In this document: positions 38,241 to 46,361 of the stretch, in pieces
Position numbering within the stretch: the stretch's first letter is position 1
Layout: each line of letters opens with the position of its first letter
DNA from: Fusobacteriales bacterium
Lineage (GTDB): Bacteria > Fusobacteriota > Fusobacteriia > Fusobacteriales > Fusobacteriaceae
NCBI GenBank assembly: GCA_020063625.1
Contig: JAICDD010000003.1
Location: forward strand, 16,833-80,832
Direction: 5' to 3'
DNA: 64,000 nucleotides
The notes under the pieces: model-generated
Seen by the model: the letters and a program-made list of their open reading frames with translations, nothing else
The model's database searches: none
Told to the model about the DNA's origin: nothing
Translations under genes and position numbers: made by a program

Positions 38241-38270
38241 AAAAAATGAGAGTTTTTACTCTCATTTTTT
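38241..38270. terminator. bidirectional intrinsic terminator
   Basis: AAAAAATGAGAG-ttttta-CTCTCATTTTTT. Confidence 0.8.
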
Positions 38271-39141
38271 ATTGTTGCATAATAATTATATCTATATTTT
38301 CTTTATTTTTAATTAAAGTTGCATATTCTAATGCTATTTTTTTTAGAAATATATCTTTAGATTCTAAAATATACTCTCCATCTTTTTCAAAAATTTCAAG
38401 TTTTATATATTTTTCAAATCTTGTTTGTTCTTTTACTAAGTTATCTAAATTTTTATCTTTTAATAATATTATTCTCCACTGTTTTATTTCTAATTCAGAG
38501 TTTATTTCAAATAAATTATTGAGTTTATTACTTATATCTATAGCTATCTCTTTTGGAAATTTATCTTTACTTATTATATATTCTTTATCATTTACTTTTA
38601 TTTCCATAATATCTAATATTTCTTTTAATTTATTTTTTATTTCTTCTTTTTTTGATAAATCACCAAAATTAATATTATAAATATTAGCAAAATCATCTAT
38701 TTCTTTATTTTTATTTTCTATAAAAACTATTTTATTTTCTTTAGACGGTATTTTTATATCTTTTTTTATCTCATTAGATTCTTTTTTTTCTACTTTTTTA
38801 TTTTTTTCTTTTTCTTTATACTCTATTTTTTCTTTTATATCTTCTGTTTTTTCTATTAATGATACTTTTTCTGTGCTTTTATTATTTTGAATTTTTTCTG
38901 TTTTCTCTATTTTGGTTATTTCTTGTTTTTTTGTTTTTTCAGTATTTATCTCTTCAATAGTTTTTAATAATTTTTCAAATTCCTCTTTTGTTTTTTCTAC
39001 TTCATCAGATGTTTTCTCTTTTTCTACTATTTTTTCTTTAGATTTTAAAATAGTTTTTTCTTCTTTTAAAGTAGTTTTCATTATAATTCCTGTTATTAAA
39101 ATAGCTAGTCCAAATCCTAATAAAAAATAGTTTTTATACAT
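38269..39141 (-). CDS. hypothetical membrane-anchored protein with Lys/Glu-rich linker
   Basis: N-terminal TM, ~110 aa K/E/T low-complexity region, C-terminal domain; GGAGG RBS. Confidence 0.7.
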   Translation of the reverse strand: MYKNYFLLGFGLAILITGIIMKTTLKEEKTILKSKEKIVEKEKTSDEVEKTKEEFEKLLKTIEEINTEKTKKQEITKIEKTEKIQNNKSTEKVSLIEKTEDIKEKIEYKEKEKNKKVEKKESNEIKKDIKIPSKENKIVFIENKNKEIDDFANIYNINFGDLSKKEEIKNKLKEILDIMEIKVNDKEYIISKDKFPKEIAIDISNKLNNLFEINSELEIKQWRIILLKDKNLDNLVKEQTRFEKYIKLEIFEKDGEYILESKDIFLKKIALEYATLIKNKENIDIIIMQQ

Positions 39142-39210: not shown

Positions 39211-39873
39211 TTATTCTTCTTCTAATAATTTATCTTCATCTAAGATTTTATATTCATTTTTCCCTATTCTTTCTAATATCTCTTTATCAACTAATTGAGA
39301 TAAAGTTCTTGAAAGTGATGGTCTAGCTACTCCAAAAGTTTCTGCTATATCCTTTAACGACTTATGAAATTTAAATGTATTTTCTTCTGTAATATGTTCG
39401 TTTATATAATCTCTCAATTTTTCTACAATTGATTTATTTTTAAAATTAAACCATATTTTCTTACTTAAAAACTGTGTTTTTGTAGATATATTATTTAAAT
39501 AATTTAATAGTATTTGTTCATTTAATCTAAAGAGTTTTAATAATTCAGATTTTGTAATACAAAATATTTCGGCATCTGTTTTACAATAGATATCTACTGG
39601 ATAATAATTCATTTTTCCAAAAATAAATGCACTTGCTACTATATCTCCTTTTTTTAATTCATCAATTTTGATACATTTACCATCATCTTTTTGCATTTCT
39701 GTATATAAAAATCCATCTAATAAAATCAACATATTTTCAACTTTATCACCACGAAATGCTATTACTTCATCTTTTTCATATTTTTTTATATTATATCTTA
39801 CTTTTTTTAAAATATTCTCTATTTCAATTTCATCTAATCCTTTAAAAATAGACATTTCAACTAATCTTTTCAT
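39211..39873 (-). CDS. Crp/Fnr-family regulator (HcpR-like)
   Basis: cNMP-like N-domain (GDIVASAFIFG, YPVDI) plus HTH (IAETFGVARPSLSRTL); no FNR Cys cluster; start moved to ATG 39873. Confidence 0.88.
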   Translation of the reverse strand: MKRLVEMSIFKGLDEIEIENILKKVRYNIKKYEKDEVIAFRGDKVENMLILLDGFLYTEMQKDDGKCIKIDELKKGDIVASAFIFGKMNYYPVDIYCKTDAEIFCITKSELLKLFRLNEQILLNYLNNISTKTQFLSKKIWFNFKNKSIVEKLRDYINEHITEENTFKFHKSLKDIAETFGVARPSLSRTLSQLVDKEILERIGKNEYKILDEDKLLEEE

Positions 39874-39910
39874 TACATACCTCACTTTTTTTGTTATAAT
39901 ATATAATATA

Positions 39911-39952
39911 GTAACTTATGTTACTGAAAAAATCAATAGAAAATTGTATACT
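39911..39952 (+). promoter_or_regulatory. Crp/Fnr-type operator GTAAC-N4-GTTAC and -10 of the downstream operon
   Basis: GTAACttatGTTAC (39911-39924); -10 TATACT (39947-39952) puts the site centre at about -41.5. Confidence 0.7.
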
Positions 39953-39996
39953 TATTTTGTAAAGAAAAGAGATGTAAATTTTTAGGAGGTAATAAT

Positions 39997-41205
39997 ATGA
40001 GCTTTATAAATAAAGAGATGACAATAATAGATATACTAAATAAATATCCAGAAACAATAGAATTTTTTAAATCTAAAGGATTTAAAGGATTAGAAAATGA
40101 AGCAATGTTAAAAACTGTAGGAAAAATATCATTAGAACAAAGTGTAAAATTAAAAAAATTATCTATCCAAGCATTTGTTGATAGTCTTAATGATTTTATT
40201 TCTCATAACATTGAAAGTGAAGATATAACATTAAAAAATTCAGAAATAAAAGATGATAGTGATATCTCAATCACTGGACTTTTACCTTGTCCTGTAAGAG
40301 TTCCATTATTAGAAGGTTTTGAAGAATTTAAAAAACAAAATTCTTTAGATATTTCTGCTGATTTAAAAGCTGCATCAAGTGGACTTGATTGGCTAAAAGA
40401 AAGTATAAAAAAAGATAGTTCAAATATTTCAGATATATTTATTTCTGCAGGTTTTGATTTATTCTTTGAAGATGAATTAATGGGACAATATAGAAAAGAA
40501 AAACTATTTGAAGATATTACAGGAATAAAAGAGTATAATAAAGATTTTAAAGATTTAAATATAAAAGATCCAAATAATTATTATTCTATAATCTCTGTAG
40601 TTCCAGCTGTATTTTTAGTAAATACTGAAGAATTAGGAGATAGAAAATTCCCTAAAACATGGGCTGATATACTATCAGATGAGTATGAAAACTCTATAAG
40701 CTTACCTGTATCAGATTTTGATTTATTTAATGCTATCCTTTTAAATATATACAAATTATATGGAGAAGATGGTGTAAAAAGACTTGGAAGAGCTTTACTT
40801 AGAAGTATGCATCCTGCTCAAATGGTAAAATCAGATAGATTAAAAATGAAAAAGCCTGTTGTAACTATTATGCCATATTTCTTTACAAAAATGACAGGTC
40901 AAGGTGGTCCTATGGTAGCACAGTGGCCAGAAGATGGTGCTATTATATCACCAATATTTATGCTAACTAAAAAAGATAAAAAAGATAAGTTAGAAAAAAT
41001 AGCTAAATTCTTTGCTTCAAAAGAGGTAGGAGAAATATTATCACATAAAGGTTTATTCCCATCAACACATCCTGAAATTGATAATAAACTAGAAAATAAC
41101 AAATTTATTTGGCTTGGATGGGATTTTATAAATTCAAACGATATTGGTAAATTAATTAATTATTGTGAAGATATATTTAATAATTCAATTAAGGAGGATG
41201 AATAA
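39997..41205 (+). CDS. DUF1858 + solute-binding-protein-fold protein without signal peptide
   Basis: N-terminal INKEMTIIDILNKYPETIEFF (DUF1858-like); GLLPCPVR; SBP-fold motifs (PKTWADIL, WPEDGAIISP). Confidence 0.8.
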   Translation: MSFINKEMTIIDILNKYPETIEFFKSKGFKGLENEAMLKTVGKISLEQSVKLKKLSIQAFVDSLNDFISHNIESEDITLKNSEIKDDSDISITGLLPCPVRVPLLEGFEEFKKQNSLDISADLKAASSGLDWLKESIKKDSSNISDIFISAGFDLFFEDELMGQYRKEKLFEDITGIKEYNKDFKDLNIKDPNNYYSIISVVPAVFLVNTEELGDRKFPKTWADILSDEYENSISLPVSDFDLFNAILLNIYKLYGEDGVKRLGRALLRSMHPAQMVKSDRLKMKKPVVTIMPYFFTKMTGQGGPMVAQWPEDGAIISPIFMLTKKDKKDKLEKIAKFFASKEVGEILSHKGLFPSTHPEIDNKLENNKFIWLGWDFINSNDIGKLINYCEDIFNNSIKEDE

Positions 41206-41206
41206 A

Positions 41207-41908
41207 ATGAATTTAATAACATTTTCTGGTCCACCTTCATCAGGTAAGACATCAGTTATTATTAAAACTATAGAAAGCTTTAAACAAAGAGATATAAAAG
41301 TAGGAGTAGTAAAATTTGACTGTTTATATACAGATGATGATTTGATATATGAAAAAATTGGAATCCCTGTAAAAAAAGGATTGTCTGCTTCACTTTGCCC
41401 TGATCATTATTTTGTAAGTAATATTGAAGAAGTTGTACAATGGGGAAGAAAAAATAATTTAGATATTTTAATTACAGAAAGTGCTGGACTTTGTAATAGA
41501 TGTTCACCTTATATTCAAGATATAAAAGCTATATGTGTAATAGATAATTTAAGTGGTATTAATACACCAAAAAAAATAGGCCCTATGTTAAAAAGTGCTG
41601 ATATTGTAGTTATTACAAAAGGAGATATTGTATCTCAAGCAGAAAGAGAAGTATTTGCTTCTAGAGTAAATTCAGTAAATCCAAAAGCTAAAACAATACA
41701 TATAAATGGATTAACTGGTCAAGGAGCTTATGAATTATCTACACTTATGTATGATAATAATGAAAATATAGAAACATTAAAAGGAAAAAAATTAAGATTT
41801 TCTATGCCTTCAGCTCTTTGTTCATACTGTTTAGGTGAAACAAGAATTGGAGAAGAACATCAAATGGGAAATGTAAGAAAAATAGATTTGGGTGATGACA
41901 ATGCTTAA
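41207..41908 (+). CDS. CobW/HypB/UreG-family (G3E) P-loop GTPase, Cys-rich
   Basis: GPPSSGKT, CPDH, ITESAGLCNRCSP, ITKGD, CSYCLGE; start moved to the ATG after AAGGAGG. Confidence 0.88.
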   Translation: MNLITFSGPPSSGKTSVIIKTIESFKQRDIKVGVVKFDCLYTDDDLIYEKIGIPVKKGLSASLCPDHYFVSNIEEVVQWGRKNNLDILITESAGLCNRCSPYIQDIKAICVIDNLSGINTPKKIGPMLKSADIVVITKGDIVSQAEREVFASRVNSVNPKAKTIHINGLTGQGAYELSTLMYDNNENIETLKGKKLRFSMPSALCSYCLGETRIGEEHQMGNVRKIDLGDDNA

Positions 41909-43187
41909 TAGAAAAAAATTAGAATTATTAACTATAAAAAAATTAATTAAAGAATATTCATTTTTAGAAGATTATTTTAAAGATAATTTAATAAATATTG
42001 AAAATAAACAAGATTTAACTCTTATTCAACTTCTTGATTCAATTGATAAAATAGAAAAAGAAGAAAATACTATTGATGATAATCAAATAATTGAAAATAT
42101 TATTGATTATACAAATCAAATGATAGAATTTCTTGGAATGGAAGATAATAAAGTAAAAACACTTACAATTTATCCAGGATATAATAAATATGGTGAAAAA
42201 GAAAATTATGATAAAATCGATGTACATGCTGGAGAAATAATCTGCATTGTAGGACCTACTGGAAGTGGAAAGAGTAGATTACTTGCTGATATAGAATGGG
42301 CTGCTCAAGGAGATACTCCTACAAAAAGAATTATTCATATAGATAATAATCCTGTTGATATAGCAAATAGATTTTCAGCTGGAAATAAACTTGTAGCTCA
42401 ATTATCTCAAAATATGAATTTTGTAATGGACCTTACTGTATATGAATTTTTAAAACTTCATGCTCAAAGTAGAATGGTTGAAAATGATGAAGAGATAGTT
42501 GAAAAAATTATTATAAAAGCTAATGAACTTGCTGGAGAAAAATTTACTAGAGATACACCTATTACAAGTCTTAGTGGTGGTCAATCAAGAGCTCTTATGA
42601 TAGCTGATACTGCAATATTAAGTAGTTCTCCTATTGTTCTTATAGATGAAATTGAAAATGCTGGAATTGATAGAAAAAAAGCACTTGAATTATTAGTAGG
42701 AGAAGAAAAAATAGTAATAATGGCTACTCATGACCCTATTTTAGCACTTATGGGAAATAAAAGAATTGTTATAAATAATGGTGGTATTGCTAAAATTATT
42801 GATGTCACAGAAAAAGAAAGAAGTATTTTATCAGAACTTGAAAAACTTGATAAAATTATGCAAGATATGAGAAATAAATTAAGATATGGTAAAGAAATAA
42901 CTTTAGATAAACAATATAAATTAAAAAAAATATTAGGAGGTATAAATATGCATGAAGGATGCTCTGGAAAATTTGAAAGTGGAAAACAAATAGTAGATAA
43001 ACTAAGAATGATGGGCTTTGAAAGACAAGCTATGCCTTTACCTGTACAAATTGATTGTGAATGTAGTGAAAGCTTTATAATGGAAACTTTTGAATCTAAA
43101 TGTCCACACTGTGGAATGGTATATGGTGTTACTCCATGTCATGCCTTTGATAAAAATAATATTATGGCTGCTGGAAAAGATTATTAA
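41892..43187 (+). CDS. ABC ATPase fused in frame to a Cys/His-rich domain
   Basis: GPTGSGKS, LSGGQ, LIDEIE, ATHD; C-terminal 79 aa with 6 Cys. Confidence 0.85.
   Translation: MMTMLNRKKLELLTIKKLIKEYSFLEDYFKDNLINIENKQDLTLIQLLDSIDKIEKEENTIDDNQIIENIIDYTNQMIEFLGMEDNKVKTLTIYPGYNKYGEKENYDKIDVHAGEIICIVGPTGSGKSRLLADIEWAAQGDTPTKRIIHIDNNPVDIANRFSAGNKLVAQLSQNMNFVMDLTVYEFLKLHAQSRMVENDEEIVEKIIIKANELAGEKFTRDTPITSLSGGQSRALMIADTAILSSSPIVLIDEIENAGIDRKKALELLVGEEKIVIMATHDPILALMGNKRIVINNGGIAKIIDVTEKERSILSELEKLDKIMQDMRNKLRYGKEITLDKQYKLKKILGGINMHEGCSGKFESGKQIVDKLRMMGFERQAMPLPVQIDCECSESFIMETFESKCPHCGMVYGVTPCHAFDKNNIMAAGKDY
42948..43187 (+). CDS. 79-aa Cys-rich metal-binding protein (internal in-frame start)
   Basis: AGGAGGT RBS (42935-42941) then ATG 42948; MHEGCSG...CECS...CPHCGMVYGVTPCH. 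Confidence 0.7.
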   Translation: MHEGCSGKFESGKQIVDKLRMMGFERQAMPLPVQIDCECSESFIMETFESKCPHCGMVYGVTPCHAFDKNNIMAAGKDY

Positions 43188-43216
43188 AAAAGATTGGCAT
43201 TTAGCCAATCTTTTTT
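43186..43216. terminator. bidirectional intrinsic terminator
   Basis: AAAAAAGATTGGC-attta-GCCAATCTTTTTT. Confidence 0.85.
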
Positions 43217-43286
43217 AGTCTATATCATTTATCATTGAAATTACCATAAATGCTAATGTTTTCCAAACTCTTTTTAAAAATTTCAT
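43215..43286 (-). CDS. 23-aa small protein (MKFLKRVWKTLAFMVISMINDID)
   Basis: Not in the ORF track. AGGAAGGTG RBS; promoter TTGACA (43335-43330)-N17-TATCTT; ends at the bidirectional terminator. Confidence 0.6.
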   Translation of the reverse strand: MKFLKRVWKTLAFMVISMINDID

Positions 43287-43405: not shown

Positions 43406-44215
43406 ATGTTTAGTCATTTATTAAAGGGGAAAAATAGTAAAACAGAGGTTTTAATAAGAAAAAATAATATATTAAAAAAAGAAAATGAACAATTAAAAAA
43501 TGAATTATATGCATTAAAACATAGAAAAGAAAAGATATTTTCAATTATTTCTCATGATTTAATGGGGCAAATTGCTACTTATAACAACTTAGTCGAATAT
43601 TTATTAATGAAAATGTATAATGAAGATGTAGAAAAAAAATATATTGAACGCGCATTATTGCAATTAAAAGAATCATCAAAAACCACTTATAATTTATTAG
43701 AAAATTTATTATATTGGGCAAAATCTCATCTTAATCAAATTGAATTTAATCCAAATGAATTTGAATTAAGAGAAGCTATTACTAGTCAAATGAAAATTCT
43801 TAAATTAAATGCAGAAAGTAAAAATATATCATTAAATAGTTCTATAGATAAAGATATTTATATGGTTACTGATGAAAATATGTTAAAAACCATTATTCGA
43901 AACCTTCTTTCAAATGCTATAAAATTTACTGAAAACGATGGAAAAATTGAAATTTTAGCTGAGAAAAATGATGATTATGTAACTATTACAATAAAAGATT
44001 CTGGTGTAGGTATATCTGAAAAAAAAATAAATAAAATATTAAATAATTTTAAATTTTCTAGTACAAGTGGTACAAATGGAGAAAATGGCACTGGCCTCGG
44101 TCTTATTTTATGTATTGATTTTATTAAAAGATTAGGTGGAGATTTAAAAATTTCTAGCATTGTTGATATTGGCAGTTCATTTAGTTTTACTATTCCCATT
44201 ATAAAAAAATTTTAA
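43406..44215 (+). CDS. cytoplasmic histidine kinase with no evident sensor domain
   Basis: SIISHDL H-box, RNLLSNAIKF, DSGVGI, GTGLGL; no TM. Confidence 0.88.
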   Translation: MFSHLLKGKNSKTEVLIRKNNILKKENEQLKNELYALKHRKEKIFSIISHDLMGQIATYNNLVEYLLMKMYNEDVEKKYIERALLQLKESSKTTYNLLENLLYWAKSHLNQIEFNPNEFELREAITSQMKILKLNAESKNISLNSSIDKDIYMVTDENMLKTIIRNLLSNAIKFTENDGKIEILAEKNDDYVTITIKDSGVGISEKKINKILNNFKFSSTSGTNGENGTGLGLILCIDFIKRLGGDLKISSIVDIGSSFSFTIPIIKKF

Positions 44216-44266
44216 TTAAAAAACGAGTTCTTTAGTATTAATTCAGTATTAAGAACTCGTTTTAAT
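44214..44266. repeat. REP-like palindrome copy between convergent kinases
   Basis: AAAAACGAGTTCTT-(long loop)-AAGAACTCGTTTT; overlaps the stop of the minus-strand kinase. Confidence 0.78.
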
Positions 44267-45661
44267 TTTTTTAAATATAATTTTAAATTCCATTCCTTTT
44301 TTATCTTCATTATATATAAATGAATATTTATTTTTATGATTATCTAATATTTTTTTTATTATAGATAATCCAAGTCCTGTCCCTCCATAACTTCTTTTTC
44401 TTGATTTATCTTTTTTATAAAATGGTTCCCATAACTTTTCTACCTCTTCATTATCTATTTTTTCACTACTATTAAACACTATTAACTCAATATCTTTTTC
44501 TTTATTTAATGCTTCTATATAAAAAATTTTTTCATCTTTTATATTACCTATTGCATTTGTAATAATATTTATTAATAAAGTTTCAAAATCTGTCTTAGTA
44601 TAATAAATATCTATGCTTTTATCTATATTTATATCTTTTTTTATATTATTATTTATAAAATCTACTTCAAATTTTTTTAAAATATTATTAATAAATTCTT
44701 TTAAATTTATTTGTTCAAGTTTTTTTTCATTTATTTTTTCATTTTTTACTACTTCTATAAGTTTTTTTACCATTTCTTCCATTCTATTTGTTTCATTTAA
44801 GATAATATCATAATATTCATCTTTCTCTTCAGTAATATCATCTTTTAATCCTTCTGTATATGCTTTAATTAATGCTATTGGGGTTTTCAATTCATGACTT
44901 ACATTTTTTAAAAATTCATCTCTACTCTCTTTTTCTTTTTCCAAAGATTTTGTTAAATCACTTAATTTTTTAAAATTTATTTCAAGTTCATTTGCTAAAT
45001 AATTAAAAGCATCTCCTAGTTTTTCTAATTCATCTCCTGTTTTCAATTCAACTCTTTTAGAAAAATCAAGTTTAGCTAAATCATTACTAAAATCTATAAG
45101 TTTATTAATTGGTTTGGATAATCTTTTTATATAATAAAAGTTAATAAAACTCATTGAAAATATTACAATAAAAATTATTATTAAAAACAATTCATTTGCT
45201 ATTTTTGAATTTTCTTTAATTTTATTAATTGGAAAACTCATAACTAAATAACTATCATTATATTTTAATACCCCTACTATTTCACTATATCCAAAAGGCA
45301 TATTATAATAACTATCTACTACATAATTTTTATTATTATTTAGTTTTTCAATTAAATTATTAATAACATAATTTTTCATCATCATGTTATTTCTCATCAT
45401 TCCCATTCCCATACGAGAATTATTATTTGTAATATTTTTTCTTTTTATTATAGATATATTAAATTCACCATTATAATTCTCTATTTCGTTTATATTTTTA
45501 GATAGATAATCTAACTCTTTTTCTATTTTTTGTTTATATTTATAAATATAATATCTATCTAAAAACAGTTTATTTAATAAAATTAAAGATATTATTGTAA
45601 AAAACAATATTAAAGAAAATGTAAAAAACATTTTCATACTAAATTTATTTTTTTTATTCAT
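44249..45661 (-). CDS. HAMP-domain sensor histidine kinase with Met-rich extracytoplasmic loop
   Basis: 2 TM; SRMGMGMMRNNMMM loop; NVSHELKTPI; YGGTGLGLSI. Confidence 0.93.
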   Translation of the reverse strand: MNKKNKFSMKMFFTFSLILFFTIISLILLNKLFLDRYYIYKYKQKIEKELDYLSKNINEIENYNGEFNISIIKRKNITNNNSRMGMGMMRNNMMMKNYVINNLIEKLNNNKNYVVDSYYNMPFGYSEIVGVLKYNDSYLVMSFPINKIKENSKIANELFLIIIFIVIFSMSFINFYYIKRLSKPINKLIDFSNDLAKLDFSKRVELKTGDELEKLGDAFNYLANELEINFKKLSDLTKSLEKEKESRDEFLKNVSHELKTPIALIKAYTEGLKDDITEEKDEYYDIILNETNRMEEMVKKLIEVVKNEKINEKKLEQINLKEFINNILKKFEVDFINNNIKKDINIDKSIDIYYTKTDFETLLINIITNAIGNIKDEKIFYIEALNKEKDIELIVFNSSEKIDNEEVEKLWEPFYKKDKSRKRSYGGTGLGLSIIKKILDNHKNKYSFIYNEDKKGMEFKIIFKKIKTSS

Positions 45662-45675
45662 TTTTTCTCCTTGTT

Positions 45676-46344
45676 TTACTCTTTAAAAGAAAACATATAC
45701 CCATATCCTCTTACTGTTTCAATATAATTATTACTTAATTTTTTCCTAAGTTTTTTAATATGTGTATCTACTGTTCTTATATCTCCAAAAAAAACATATC
45801 CCCATATATTATTTAATATTTTTTCTCTTGATAAAACTATATTTTTATTTTCTACTAAATATAGTAAAAGTTCATACTCTTTTGGTGATAAATTTAATAA
45901 ACTCTCATTATAATATACTCTATGTGCATCTTTATCAATTAATAATTTATCTATTTCTAGTTTATTATCTTTTTTTAATTCCATATCTTTTTTAAAGATT
46001 CTATTTATTTTAGCTACCAATACTCGAGGACTAAATGGTTTTGTTATATACTCATCAGCTCCAAGTTCAAATCCAAATATCTCATCATTATCTTTATCTC
46101 TAGCTGTCAACATAAGAATATATACTTCTTTATTTTTATTTCTAATTTGTTTACATACACTCCAACCATCTATTTTAGGAAGCATTATATCTAATATTAC
46201 TAAGTCTATATTATTATCAAAAAATTTATTTAATCCTTCTTCACCATCTTCAGCTTCAATAATTTCATAATTTTCTCTTATTAAATAATCTTTTATAATT
46301 TTTCGCATATTTTTTTCATCTTCAATAATAAGTATTTTTTTCAT
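45676..46344 (-). CDS. OmpR/PhoB-family response regulator
   Basis: ILIIEDE, LDIMLP, KPFSP, wHTH (RTVDTHIKKLRKKL, TVRGYGY); start moved to the ATG after GAGGTG. Confidence 0.95.
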   Translation of the reverse strand: MKKILIIEDEKNMRKIIKDYLIRENYEIIEAEDGEEGLNKFFDNNIDLVILDIMLPKIDGWSVCKQIRNKNKEVYILMLTARDKDNDEIFGFELGADEYITKPFSPRVLVAKINRIFKKDMELKKDNKLEIDKLLIDKDAHRVYYNESLLNLSPKEYELLLYLVENKNIVLSREKILNNIWGYVFFGDIRTVDTHIKKLRKKLSNNYIETVRGYGYMFSFKE

Positions 46345-46361
46345 TTCGCACCTCATACAAA

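Follow-up and report, generated by a model that had tools for sequence, protein, structure and literature searches.

A predicted HcpR2-controlled operon of an SBP-fold protein, a Cys-rich G3E GTPase, an ABC-type ATPase and a Cys/His mini-protein in a fusobacterial genome without hcp

The window analysed in this study is a 64,000-nt stretch of contig JAICDD010000003.1 from a Fusobacteriales bacterium. Its positions 39211-43217 carry a Crp/Fnr regulator gene that diverges from an operon encoding, in this order, a protein with the fold of a substrate-binding protein (SBP), a G3E-family GTPase, an ATP-binding cassette (ABC) ATPase and a small Cys/His protein, which is called the mini-protein below. 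The window is low in GC (~25%), and the genome to which it belongs is 1.79 Mb in size, 93.6% complete and a member of the Fusobacteriota; the SBP-fold protein is 93% identical to a protein of Hypnocyclicus thermotrophus. The regulator gene occupies 39211..39885 on the minus strand, and the plus strand holds the genes for the 402-aa SBP-fold protein (39997..41205), the 233-aa GTPase (41207..41908), the ABC-type ATPase (41901..42947) and the 79-aa mini-protein (42948..43187). A hairpin with a 14-bp stem between A- and T-runs (43185..43217) makes up an intrinsic terminator at the end of the operon. The analysis of open reading frames (ORFs) and domains in the window recovered every element that an earlier interpretation, made from the letters of the DNA and hereafter called the sequence-only reading, had listed, each where that reading had put it. 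Searches of the searchable full-text literature found no description of this operon.

The SBP-fold protein is encoded in at least 455 species genomes, as judged by a pattern scan with one genome per species, and the related loci compared in this study are the best 80 of them. In nearly all of the 80 loci the genes of the SBP-fold protein, the GTPase and the ABC ATPase (the trio) are adjacent and in the same order. The carriers belong to the Fusobacteriota, the Bacteroidota (Marinifilaceae and other Bacteroidales), the Bacillota (Clostridia and Tissierellia), the Mycoplasmatota, the Spirochaetota and the Aminicenantes, with a Ferrimonas in addition, and they make up more than half of the sampled Fusobacteriota, including several Fusobacterium species. 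Identity to the window proteins is 50-65% for the SBP-fold protein, 53-70% for full-length matches of the ABC ATPase (43% for one truncated match) and 57-75% for the mini-protein; it reaches 74-86% across phyla for the GTPase, which appears to be unusually constrained. Because strict synteny is kept across seven phylum-level groups and the GTPase retains this identity, the operon arrangement is more than chance. Moreover, no permease gene was found in the window, and clustering of the ORFs of the 80 related loci revealed no membrane family conserved with the trio. The four linked modules that the sequence-only reading had described were recovered in the window, and a membrane permease was missing both there and among the conserved neighbours in the related loci.

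The regulator combines a cNMP_binding domain (PF00027, E 7.5e-12) with an HTH_Crp_2 domain (PF13545, E 1.2e-9), and its real start is likely the ATG at 39873 (MKRLVEMS...). In a BLASTP alignment with E. coli CRP, GVARPSLSR of the regulator fell on GCSRETVGR, so that its Arg and Pro correspond to CRP residues 180 and 181. Furthermore, the RPxLSR recognition helix was invariant in eight regulator orthologues. According to Rodionov et al. 2005 (PMC1274295), HcpR2 regulators are marked in the recognition helix by an Arg at CRP position 180 and by a Pro that replaces Glu at position 181, and their operator consensus is GTAACnnnnGTTAC. The site GTAACttatGTTAC at 39911..39924 is an exact match to this consensus. 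It adjoins a promoter-like site on the plus strand (39924..39952) with a -35-like CTGAAA, a 17-nt spacer and the -10 element TATACT (39947-39952). Because the consensus scan placed the -10-like TATACT 22 nt 3' of the box, the box centre would lie ~41.5 nt 5' of the inferred transcription start, which is the geometry of a class-II activator; the spacing between box and -10 element recurs in loci L083-L086. The HcpR-like regulation claimed by the sequence-only reading is well supported by the exact HcpR2 box together with the Arg-Pro signature of the recognition helix.

The box was found at most 250 nt 5' of the SBP gene as an exact match in 45/81 loci, versus 13/3943 background windows of 250 nt, and with at most one mismatch in 57/81 loci, versus 38/3943 background windows. 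Many of the background matches were separate boxes in front of adjacent hcp genes. In the whole 1.79-Mb genome there were only two exact matches to GTAACnnnnGTTAC, namely the operon box and a copy in a terminator hairpin, and 31 sites with one mismatch or none, among which the operon box was the sole credible one placed at a promoter. One box with a single mismatch stands 141 nt 5' of a flagellin-like gene, which is probably chance. The operon is therefore the sole predicted HcpR2 target in the window genome. The second exact box (C7:10381) was rejected as an operator, as it is the loop-proximal part of a terminator hairpin with a 15-bp stem after cysN/cysC. This copy, which lies outside the window, forms the middle of a perfect palindrome of 34 nt, AGAAAATTCAGTAACGATCGTTACTGAATTTTCT (C7:10371-10404), directly after the cysN/cysC-like gene; the palindrome and the real operon box both have the extended GTTACTGAA arm.

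According to earlier work, the targets of HcpR2 are hcp, at times together with frdX and a few other genes, and regulators of the HcpR2 branch are invariably found together with hcp (PMC1274295). The HcpR proteins that have been studied are regulators of nitric oxide (NO) stress, and C. difficile HcpR protects against NO donors (PMC12915319). In two other lineages, the place of the Crp-type regulator is taken by an Rrf2-family (NsrR/IscR-like) regulator directly 5' of the SBP gene, as seen in a Saccharicrinis metagenome-assembled genome (L027:26-421) and a Ferrimonas metagenome-assembled genome (L071:7568-7990).

The SBP-fold protein consists of an N-terminal DUF1858 domain (PF08984, residues 4-60, E 3e-15) and an SBP_bac_6 domain (PF13343, residues 143-381, E 2e-76), and it is predicted to be cytoplasmic. 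It lacks a hydrophobic N-terminus and carries the motif LPC98PV. Neither a signal peptide nor a lipobox was present in 61 SBP-fold sequences; a helical DUF1858 domain is folded at the N-terminus instead. An SBP without a signal peptide, with a DUF1858-like start and with a CPV motif, as had been proposed from the sequence, was confirmed in all three respects. Across the same 61 sequences C98 (in LPC98P), H272 and many Asp, Trp and Phe residues were invariant, and H350 was at least 90% conserved. The AlphaFold model of the protein reached a predicted local distance difference test (pLDDT) score of 84.7. Its nearest folds in the PDB, as found by Foldseek, were P5PA, the ferric/ferrous-binding FbpA/FutA, the sugar-phosphate-binding AfuA and PotD, with template modelling scores of ~0.67-0.72 when normalised to target length. 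The ligand residues could not be mapped by alignment to solved SBPs, for which the matches were weak (E 0.003-1).

The GTPase matched the cobW domain (PF02492) with 44.5 bits against a cut-off of 20.7. Its start is the ATG at 41207, one base past the stop of the SBP gene and behind the Shine-Dalgarno sequence AAGGAGG; a GTG at 41165 was rejected as the start, since no homologue uses the longer form. The best family matches were HypB and UreG. However, the scores of 52.7 bits for TIGR00073 (HypB equivalog, cut-off 121.2) and 32.1 bits for TIGR00101 (UreG equivalog, cut-off 204.2) lay far below the cut-offs, and the GTPase can be regarded on its scores as related to both families but distinct from both. 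All three Cys motifs ascribed to it by the sequence-only reading, CPDH, CNRC and CSYC, were present, the last of them in a C-terminal extension of ~55 aa. C64-P-D-H67, which has one residue more, fell on the metal-binding motif of the dimer interface, CPH in UreG (H. pylori and K. pneumoniae) and Cys-His in HypB (M. jannaschii), and ESAGLC96NRC99 aligned with the switch-II Cys region of HypB. In 82 GTPase sequences C64, H67, C96, C99, C110, C205 and C208 were invariant, and C39 was 98% conserved.

The ABC ATPase (PF00005, E 1e-15) begins at ~41901 and overlaps the stop of the GTPase gene. The catalytic motifs (Walker A, LSGGQ, LIDE and H-loop) are complete, and they were conserved in 81 ABC ATPase sequences. 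Its nucleotide-binding domain (NBD) is far from solved NBDs, the best PDB sequence match being MJ0796 with 46 bits. In addition, the protein carries an N-terminal domain of ~90 residues that resembles the DUF1858 domain of the SBP-fold protein (hhalign probability 65%, E 6e-5; motif KYPF versus KYPE), and therefore the two subunits seem to share the same small domain.

The mini-protein contains 6 Cys and 3 His in 79 residues, with the layout MHEGC ... CxC ... CPHC ... PCH. The Cys and His content had been stated correctly by the sequence-only reading, which had called this part the last domain; elsewhere it is normally a separate gene of ~80 aa. It was detectable in 61/80 related loci and was an independent ORF of ~80 aa in 59/59 delimited ones, usually in another frame than the ABC ATPase. 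The ABC ATPase of the sister species stops at residue 342, and its 79-aa gene comes next in another frame. An alignment of the two spacers showed that the A/T-rich one in the window (42900-42960) has a 5-nt deletion and several substitutions that erased the ABC stop and joined the frames. The fusion could be real and lineage-specific, or it could be an assembly error. Because the mini-protein's own Shine-Dalgarno sequence AGGAGG (42935-42940) and ATG (42948) are intact, fused and free products are both possible.

In 59 mini-protein sequences H2, G4, C5, C37, C52, C55 and C64 were invariant, and C39 and H65 were at least 90% conserved, which suggests a four-Cys zinc ribbon and a second site with two residues each of His and Cys. 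The model had a pLDDT of 90; Foldseek returned no PDB match at E < 1, and no Pfam or NCBIfam family reached its cut-off. A profile search of 1.84 billion protein representatives (50% identity) yielded 101 hits, all of at most 122 aa, and there was no HypA among the seven longer low-scoring matches that were checked. The window mini-protein scored 13.9 bits with PF01155 (HypA), below the gathering score of 28.9, and 55/59 family members matched the HypA model at E <= 1 (best E 2e-5) in the zinc-ribbon part only. HypA begins with the nickel motif Met-His-Glu, and the window mini-protein also starts MHE. Its family conserves H-[DE]-G-C, but in 10/61 loci this His stands at a position other than 2, for example in MSHEGC, MAHDGC and MANEHDGC. 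The mini-protein was rejected as a HypA homologue, given a zinc-ribbon likeness below threshold and no HypA from the profile and Foldseek searches.

The relation of the operon to the hybrid-cluster protein Hcp was examined both at the loci and in whole genomes. An hcp gene (PF03063-type, ~550 aa, N-terminus MFCYQCQET) was found directly 3' of the operon in 22/80 loci, mostly of Clostridia and Tissierellia, with its own identical box, and hcp was present somewhere in the genome of 46-47 of 50 diverse carriers. The window genome, 93.6% complete, contains no Prismane-family gene, yet operon, regulator and operator are intact. Among 151 Fusobacteriota genomes, 63 had both the system and hcp, 20 the system without hcp, 46 hcp without the system and 22 neither (odds ratio 1.5, Fisher p = 0.28). 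Of the 83 system-positive genomes, 20 have no hcp; among these are whole genera as well as several assemblies in one to four contigs (G071, G076, G084-G087). Of the 68 system-negative genomes, 46 carry hcp. Thus, co-occurrence with hcp and hcpR, the check named by the sequence-only reading, held for the regulator and its box and for the loci with hcp directly 3', but not for the association with hcp in the Fusobacteriota.

Moreover, five hcp-less genomes (G058, G071, G076, G084 and G106) each contain exactly one regulator orthologue, with 39-43% identity and the RPxLSR helix, and the regulator is unlinked from the operon in the hcp-less genera g13 and g14. The trio was intact in 4/4 loci of hcp-less carriers that were looked at, and the boxes of such carriers are exact or degenerate (TGTAAY-N4-RTTACA), with the same spacing to an extended -10 element. 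The operon shares the operator consensus and the Arg-Pro signature with the HcpR2 regulon of PMC1274295; unlike in that regulon, regulator and operator stay with the operon in genomes without hcp, and co-occurrence with hcp was seen neither in the window genome nor in the five further hcp-less genomes. Because hcp-less genomes keep the trio, the regulator and the boxes, the operon is, on sequence evidence, an independent and conserved target of HcpR2, and it cannot exist solely for the maturation of Hcp, which may nevertheless be one of its clients.

From these observations, we favour, with slightly better than even confidence, a cytoplasmic nucleotide-driven machine that delivers or repairs iron or iron-sulphur (Fe-S)-type metal centres, is induced by nitrosative stress and acts beside Hcp. 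In the proposed mechanism, the HcpR2-type Crp/Fnr sensor would bind the GTAAC-N4-GTTAC box, ~41.5 nt 5' of the inferred start, and would activate the operon. The SBP-fold protein, with its N-terminal DUF1858 domain, would hold a small cargo, and a dimer of the ABC ATPase would act on this soluble protein and not on a membrane permease. The GTPase and the mini-protein would then hand this cargo, for which iron or an Fe-S-type fragment is most likely, on to clients damaged by NO or take it over from them, and the whole system would work beside Hcp in the same regulon. The handling of metal or Fe-S is suggested by the invariant Cys and His residues and by the alignment of CPDH with the metal site of UreG and HypB. 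The response of P. gingivalis HcpR to NO or nitrite is haem-based. SufC in SufBCD is a cytoplasmic ABC ATPase that fulfils a metallocluster task without a permease. The ABC-type ATPase of the operon is likewise without a permease; unlike SufC, it has no SufB or SufD partners but an SBP-fold protein, and its NBD is distant from solved ABC ATPases.

Several points weigh against the proposed machine. About a quarter of the loci have no detectable mini-protein, no box was found even with up to two mismatches in 20/81 loci, and the promoter consensus scan is by itself not significant in AT-rich DNA. The nearest SBP folds, as found with the predicted model, also bind pyridoxal phosphate, sugar phosphates and polyamines, and the cargo may thus not be a metal. 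We infer metal binding from conserved Cys and His residues alone, and likewise infer the identity of the metal, complex formation, the direction of transfer and the clients. The sensing of NO by this regulator clade is extrapolated from other HcpR proteins.

Three other explanations were weighed against the iron or Fe-S repair machine. The operon could encode a specific Ni, Co or Zn metallochaperone for another enzyme, like HypA/HypB or UreE/UreG, to which the NO link would be secondary. As in those systems, a G3E (SIMIBI-class) GTPase carries a Cys/His site at the position of the UreG CPH, which binds Ni, and of the HypB Cys-His; HypB and UreG are its best family matches. Its partner is, as in HypA/HypB, a small protein in which a His motif at the N-terminus (MHE in the window) goes together with a zinc ribbon of four Cys, and nearly all members of this family match the HypA model weakly. 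However, the window genome gave no match to [NiFe]-hydrogenase (PF00374), urease (PF00449) or carbon monoxide dehydrogenase (CODH), so the clients of HypA/HypB and UreE/UreG are absent. The GTPase falls far under both equivalog cut-offs, has the ~55-aa CSYC extension and carries seven conserved Cys residues, which to our knowledge exceed any known Ni or Zn site of a G3E protein; the mini-protein is not HypA by the thresholds used. The SBP-fold and ABC ATPase partners are additional to those systems, and regulators of the NO type (HcpR2, and Rrf2 in two lineages) are the common theme of the operon. This explanation is accordingly considered unlikely. Alternatively, the operon could be devoted to maturing the hybrid [4Fe-2S-2O] cluster of Hcp, much as CooC/CooT/CooJ serve the related CODH; the sequence-only reading had suggested Hcp maturation as a possibility, and we give this explanation slightly less credence still. 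It would agree with the hcp genes directly 3' of the operon under their own identical box and with the presence of hcp in most diverse carriers, and we know of no Hcp maturase. However, operon, regulator and operator are intact in the window genome, which has no Prismane-family gene; system and hcp are not associated in the Fusobacteriota, where hcp-less carriers include few-contig assemblies and whole genera, and 46 hcp-positive genomes manage without the system. As an exclusive role, Hcp maturation is contradicted.

A genuine ABC importer, of which the operon would supply the soluble part and another locus the permease, is very improbable. Database names for the SBP-fold protein point that way, be it "ABC-type Fe3+ transport system" or "ABC transporter substrate-binding protein". 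The two-lobed fold is that of FbpA, FutA, AfuA and P5PA (SBP_bac_6). The genome also encodes two canonical SBP_bac_6 proteins (on contigs C29 and C40), which begin MKKILFVLTLVLSTFVFA and MKKVLLMFLLLSNFIFG and have classic signal peptides and adjacent permeases with 11-12 transmembrane (TM) segments. The pair on C40 (C40:1185-3789, outside the window), an SBP and an 11-TM permease, has no ABC ATPase gene in its operon and adjoins a gene that we take to be that of a thiamine pyrophosphokinase; the ATPase that energises this pair must be encoded elsewhere, and the pair could be read in favour of an importer. However, a complete ABC NBD is the only part of an SBP-dependent ABC importer found in the operon, an exported binding protein and an operon permease being absent. 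Unlike FbpA, FutA, AfuA and P5PA, the SBP-fold protein is predicted to be cytoplasmic, has DUF1858 in place of a signal peptide, stands without a permease and carries the invariant LPCP Cys. Moreover, translational coupling links the GTPase and the Cys-rich mini-protein to the supposed transporter genes, the former between them and the latter behind them, and the ABC ATPase has a DUF1858-like N-domain of its own. Neither a cognate permease nor an exported SBP, which the sequence-only reading had named as contrary evidence, was found in the window, among the conserved neighbours at the 80 loci or in the 61 sequences, and the claim that the operon is not a transporter is supported by the DUF1858 N-terminus, by the lack of a conserved permease near the 80 loci and by the signal peptides on the canonical SBPs of the same genome. 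The ABC transporters linked to CODH (PMC6344411) are membrane-bound systems of the NitT/TauT type, different from this operon. The labels "ABC transporter substrate-binding protein" and "ATP-binding protein" for its parts are misleading.

The favoured iron or Fe-S repair machine can be extended, tentatively and with considerably less confidence, to a new class of "inverted" ABC system. In such a system, the ABC dimer would clamp the SBP as cargo holder, both proteins carrying DUF1858/ScdA_N-like docking domains. The seven-Cys GTPase, possibly with an Fe-S or iron-nitrosyl centre at its dimer interface, and the two-site mini-protein would extract or re-insert iron or Fe-S fragments at NO-damaged proteins. 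The system would be functionally equivalent to RIC/YtfE in anaerobes without that protein, and the operon, not hcp, would be the conserved core target of HcpR2. DUF1858, a helical domain, is assumed here to resemble ScdA_N, the N-terminal domain of RIC/YtfE/ScdA. Like RIC/YtfE and Hcp, the operon is placed in a nitrosative-stress regulon, alongside Hcp; unlike RIC/YtfE, it has no hemerythrin di-iron domain and is a multi-protein NTPase system. ScdA_N (PF04405) was above its cut-off in 0/151 Fusobacteriota genomes. An anticorrelation with RIC/YtfE as a test of replacement was thus uninformative, because ScdA_N is absent from every Fusobacteriota genome examined.

If the proposed function is correct, the operon would be a fifth kind of G3E-GTPase system and the second example, after SufBCD, of an ABC ATPase in cytoplasmic metallocentre work. 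It would also fill a gap in the understanding of how strict anaerobes without RIC/YtfE withstand the NO that comes from hosts and from nitrate-reducing neighbours. The window genome is a natural experiment in this regard: because hcp is missing along with CODH, [NiFe]-hydrogenase and urease, and the regulator has no predicted target besides the operon, the function of the operon can be studied apart from Hcp. It shows an "HcpR" that, by box prediction, is kept for this operon alone. New from this window are the hcp-less case, the statistics of non-association, an operon that is the single HcpR2 target predicted in its genome, the retention of the regulator in genera without hcp and the ABC/mini-protein fusion.

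Some further genes were noted near the operon or its relatives. In one hcp-less genome only (L084), genes like cobC and cobK lie 5' of the operon; they are absent from the window genome, and a link to cobalamin genes was dismissed as coincidence. Two loci of Tissierellia encode a DUF2249 protein (E 2e-31) just 5' of the SBP gene (L025:7388-7624 and L079:3298-3534). Outside the window, a stand-alone DUF1858 ORF (C8:10227-10382, L002; ~70-aa open frame, 51 bits) is flanked by a KpsF/GutQ-like gene and pdxT, and no HcpR2-like box was seen near it. Adjoining the regulator gene in the window, the minus strand at 38269-39141 encodes a protein of 290 aa that is rich in Lys and Glu, has a single hydrophobic segment at the N-terminus, belongs to no Pfam family and is conserved in the sister genome only. 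Just past the terminator and on the same strand as the operon, 43406-44215 encodes a 269-aa soluble histidine-kinase-like protein with a HATPase_c domain and the H-box-like motif SHDL, in which no transmembrane or sensor domain was found. This gene is not in the conserved cassette of the other loci; it is kept in the sister genome and faces a convergent pair of sensor kinase and response regulator genes (44249-46356).

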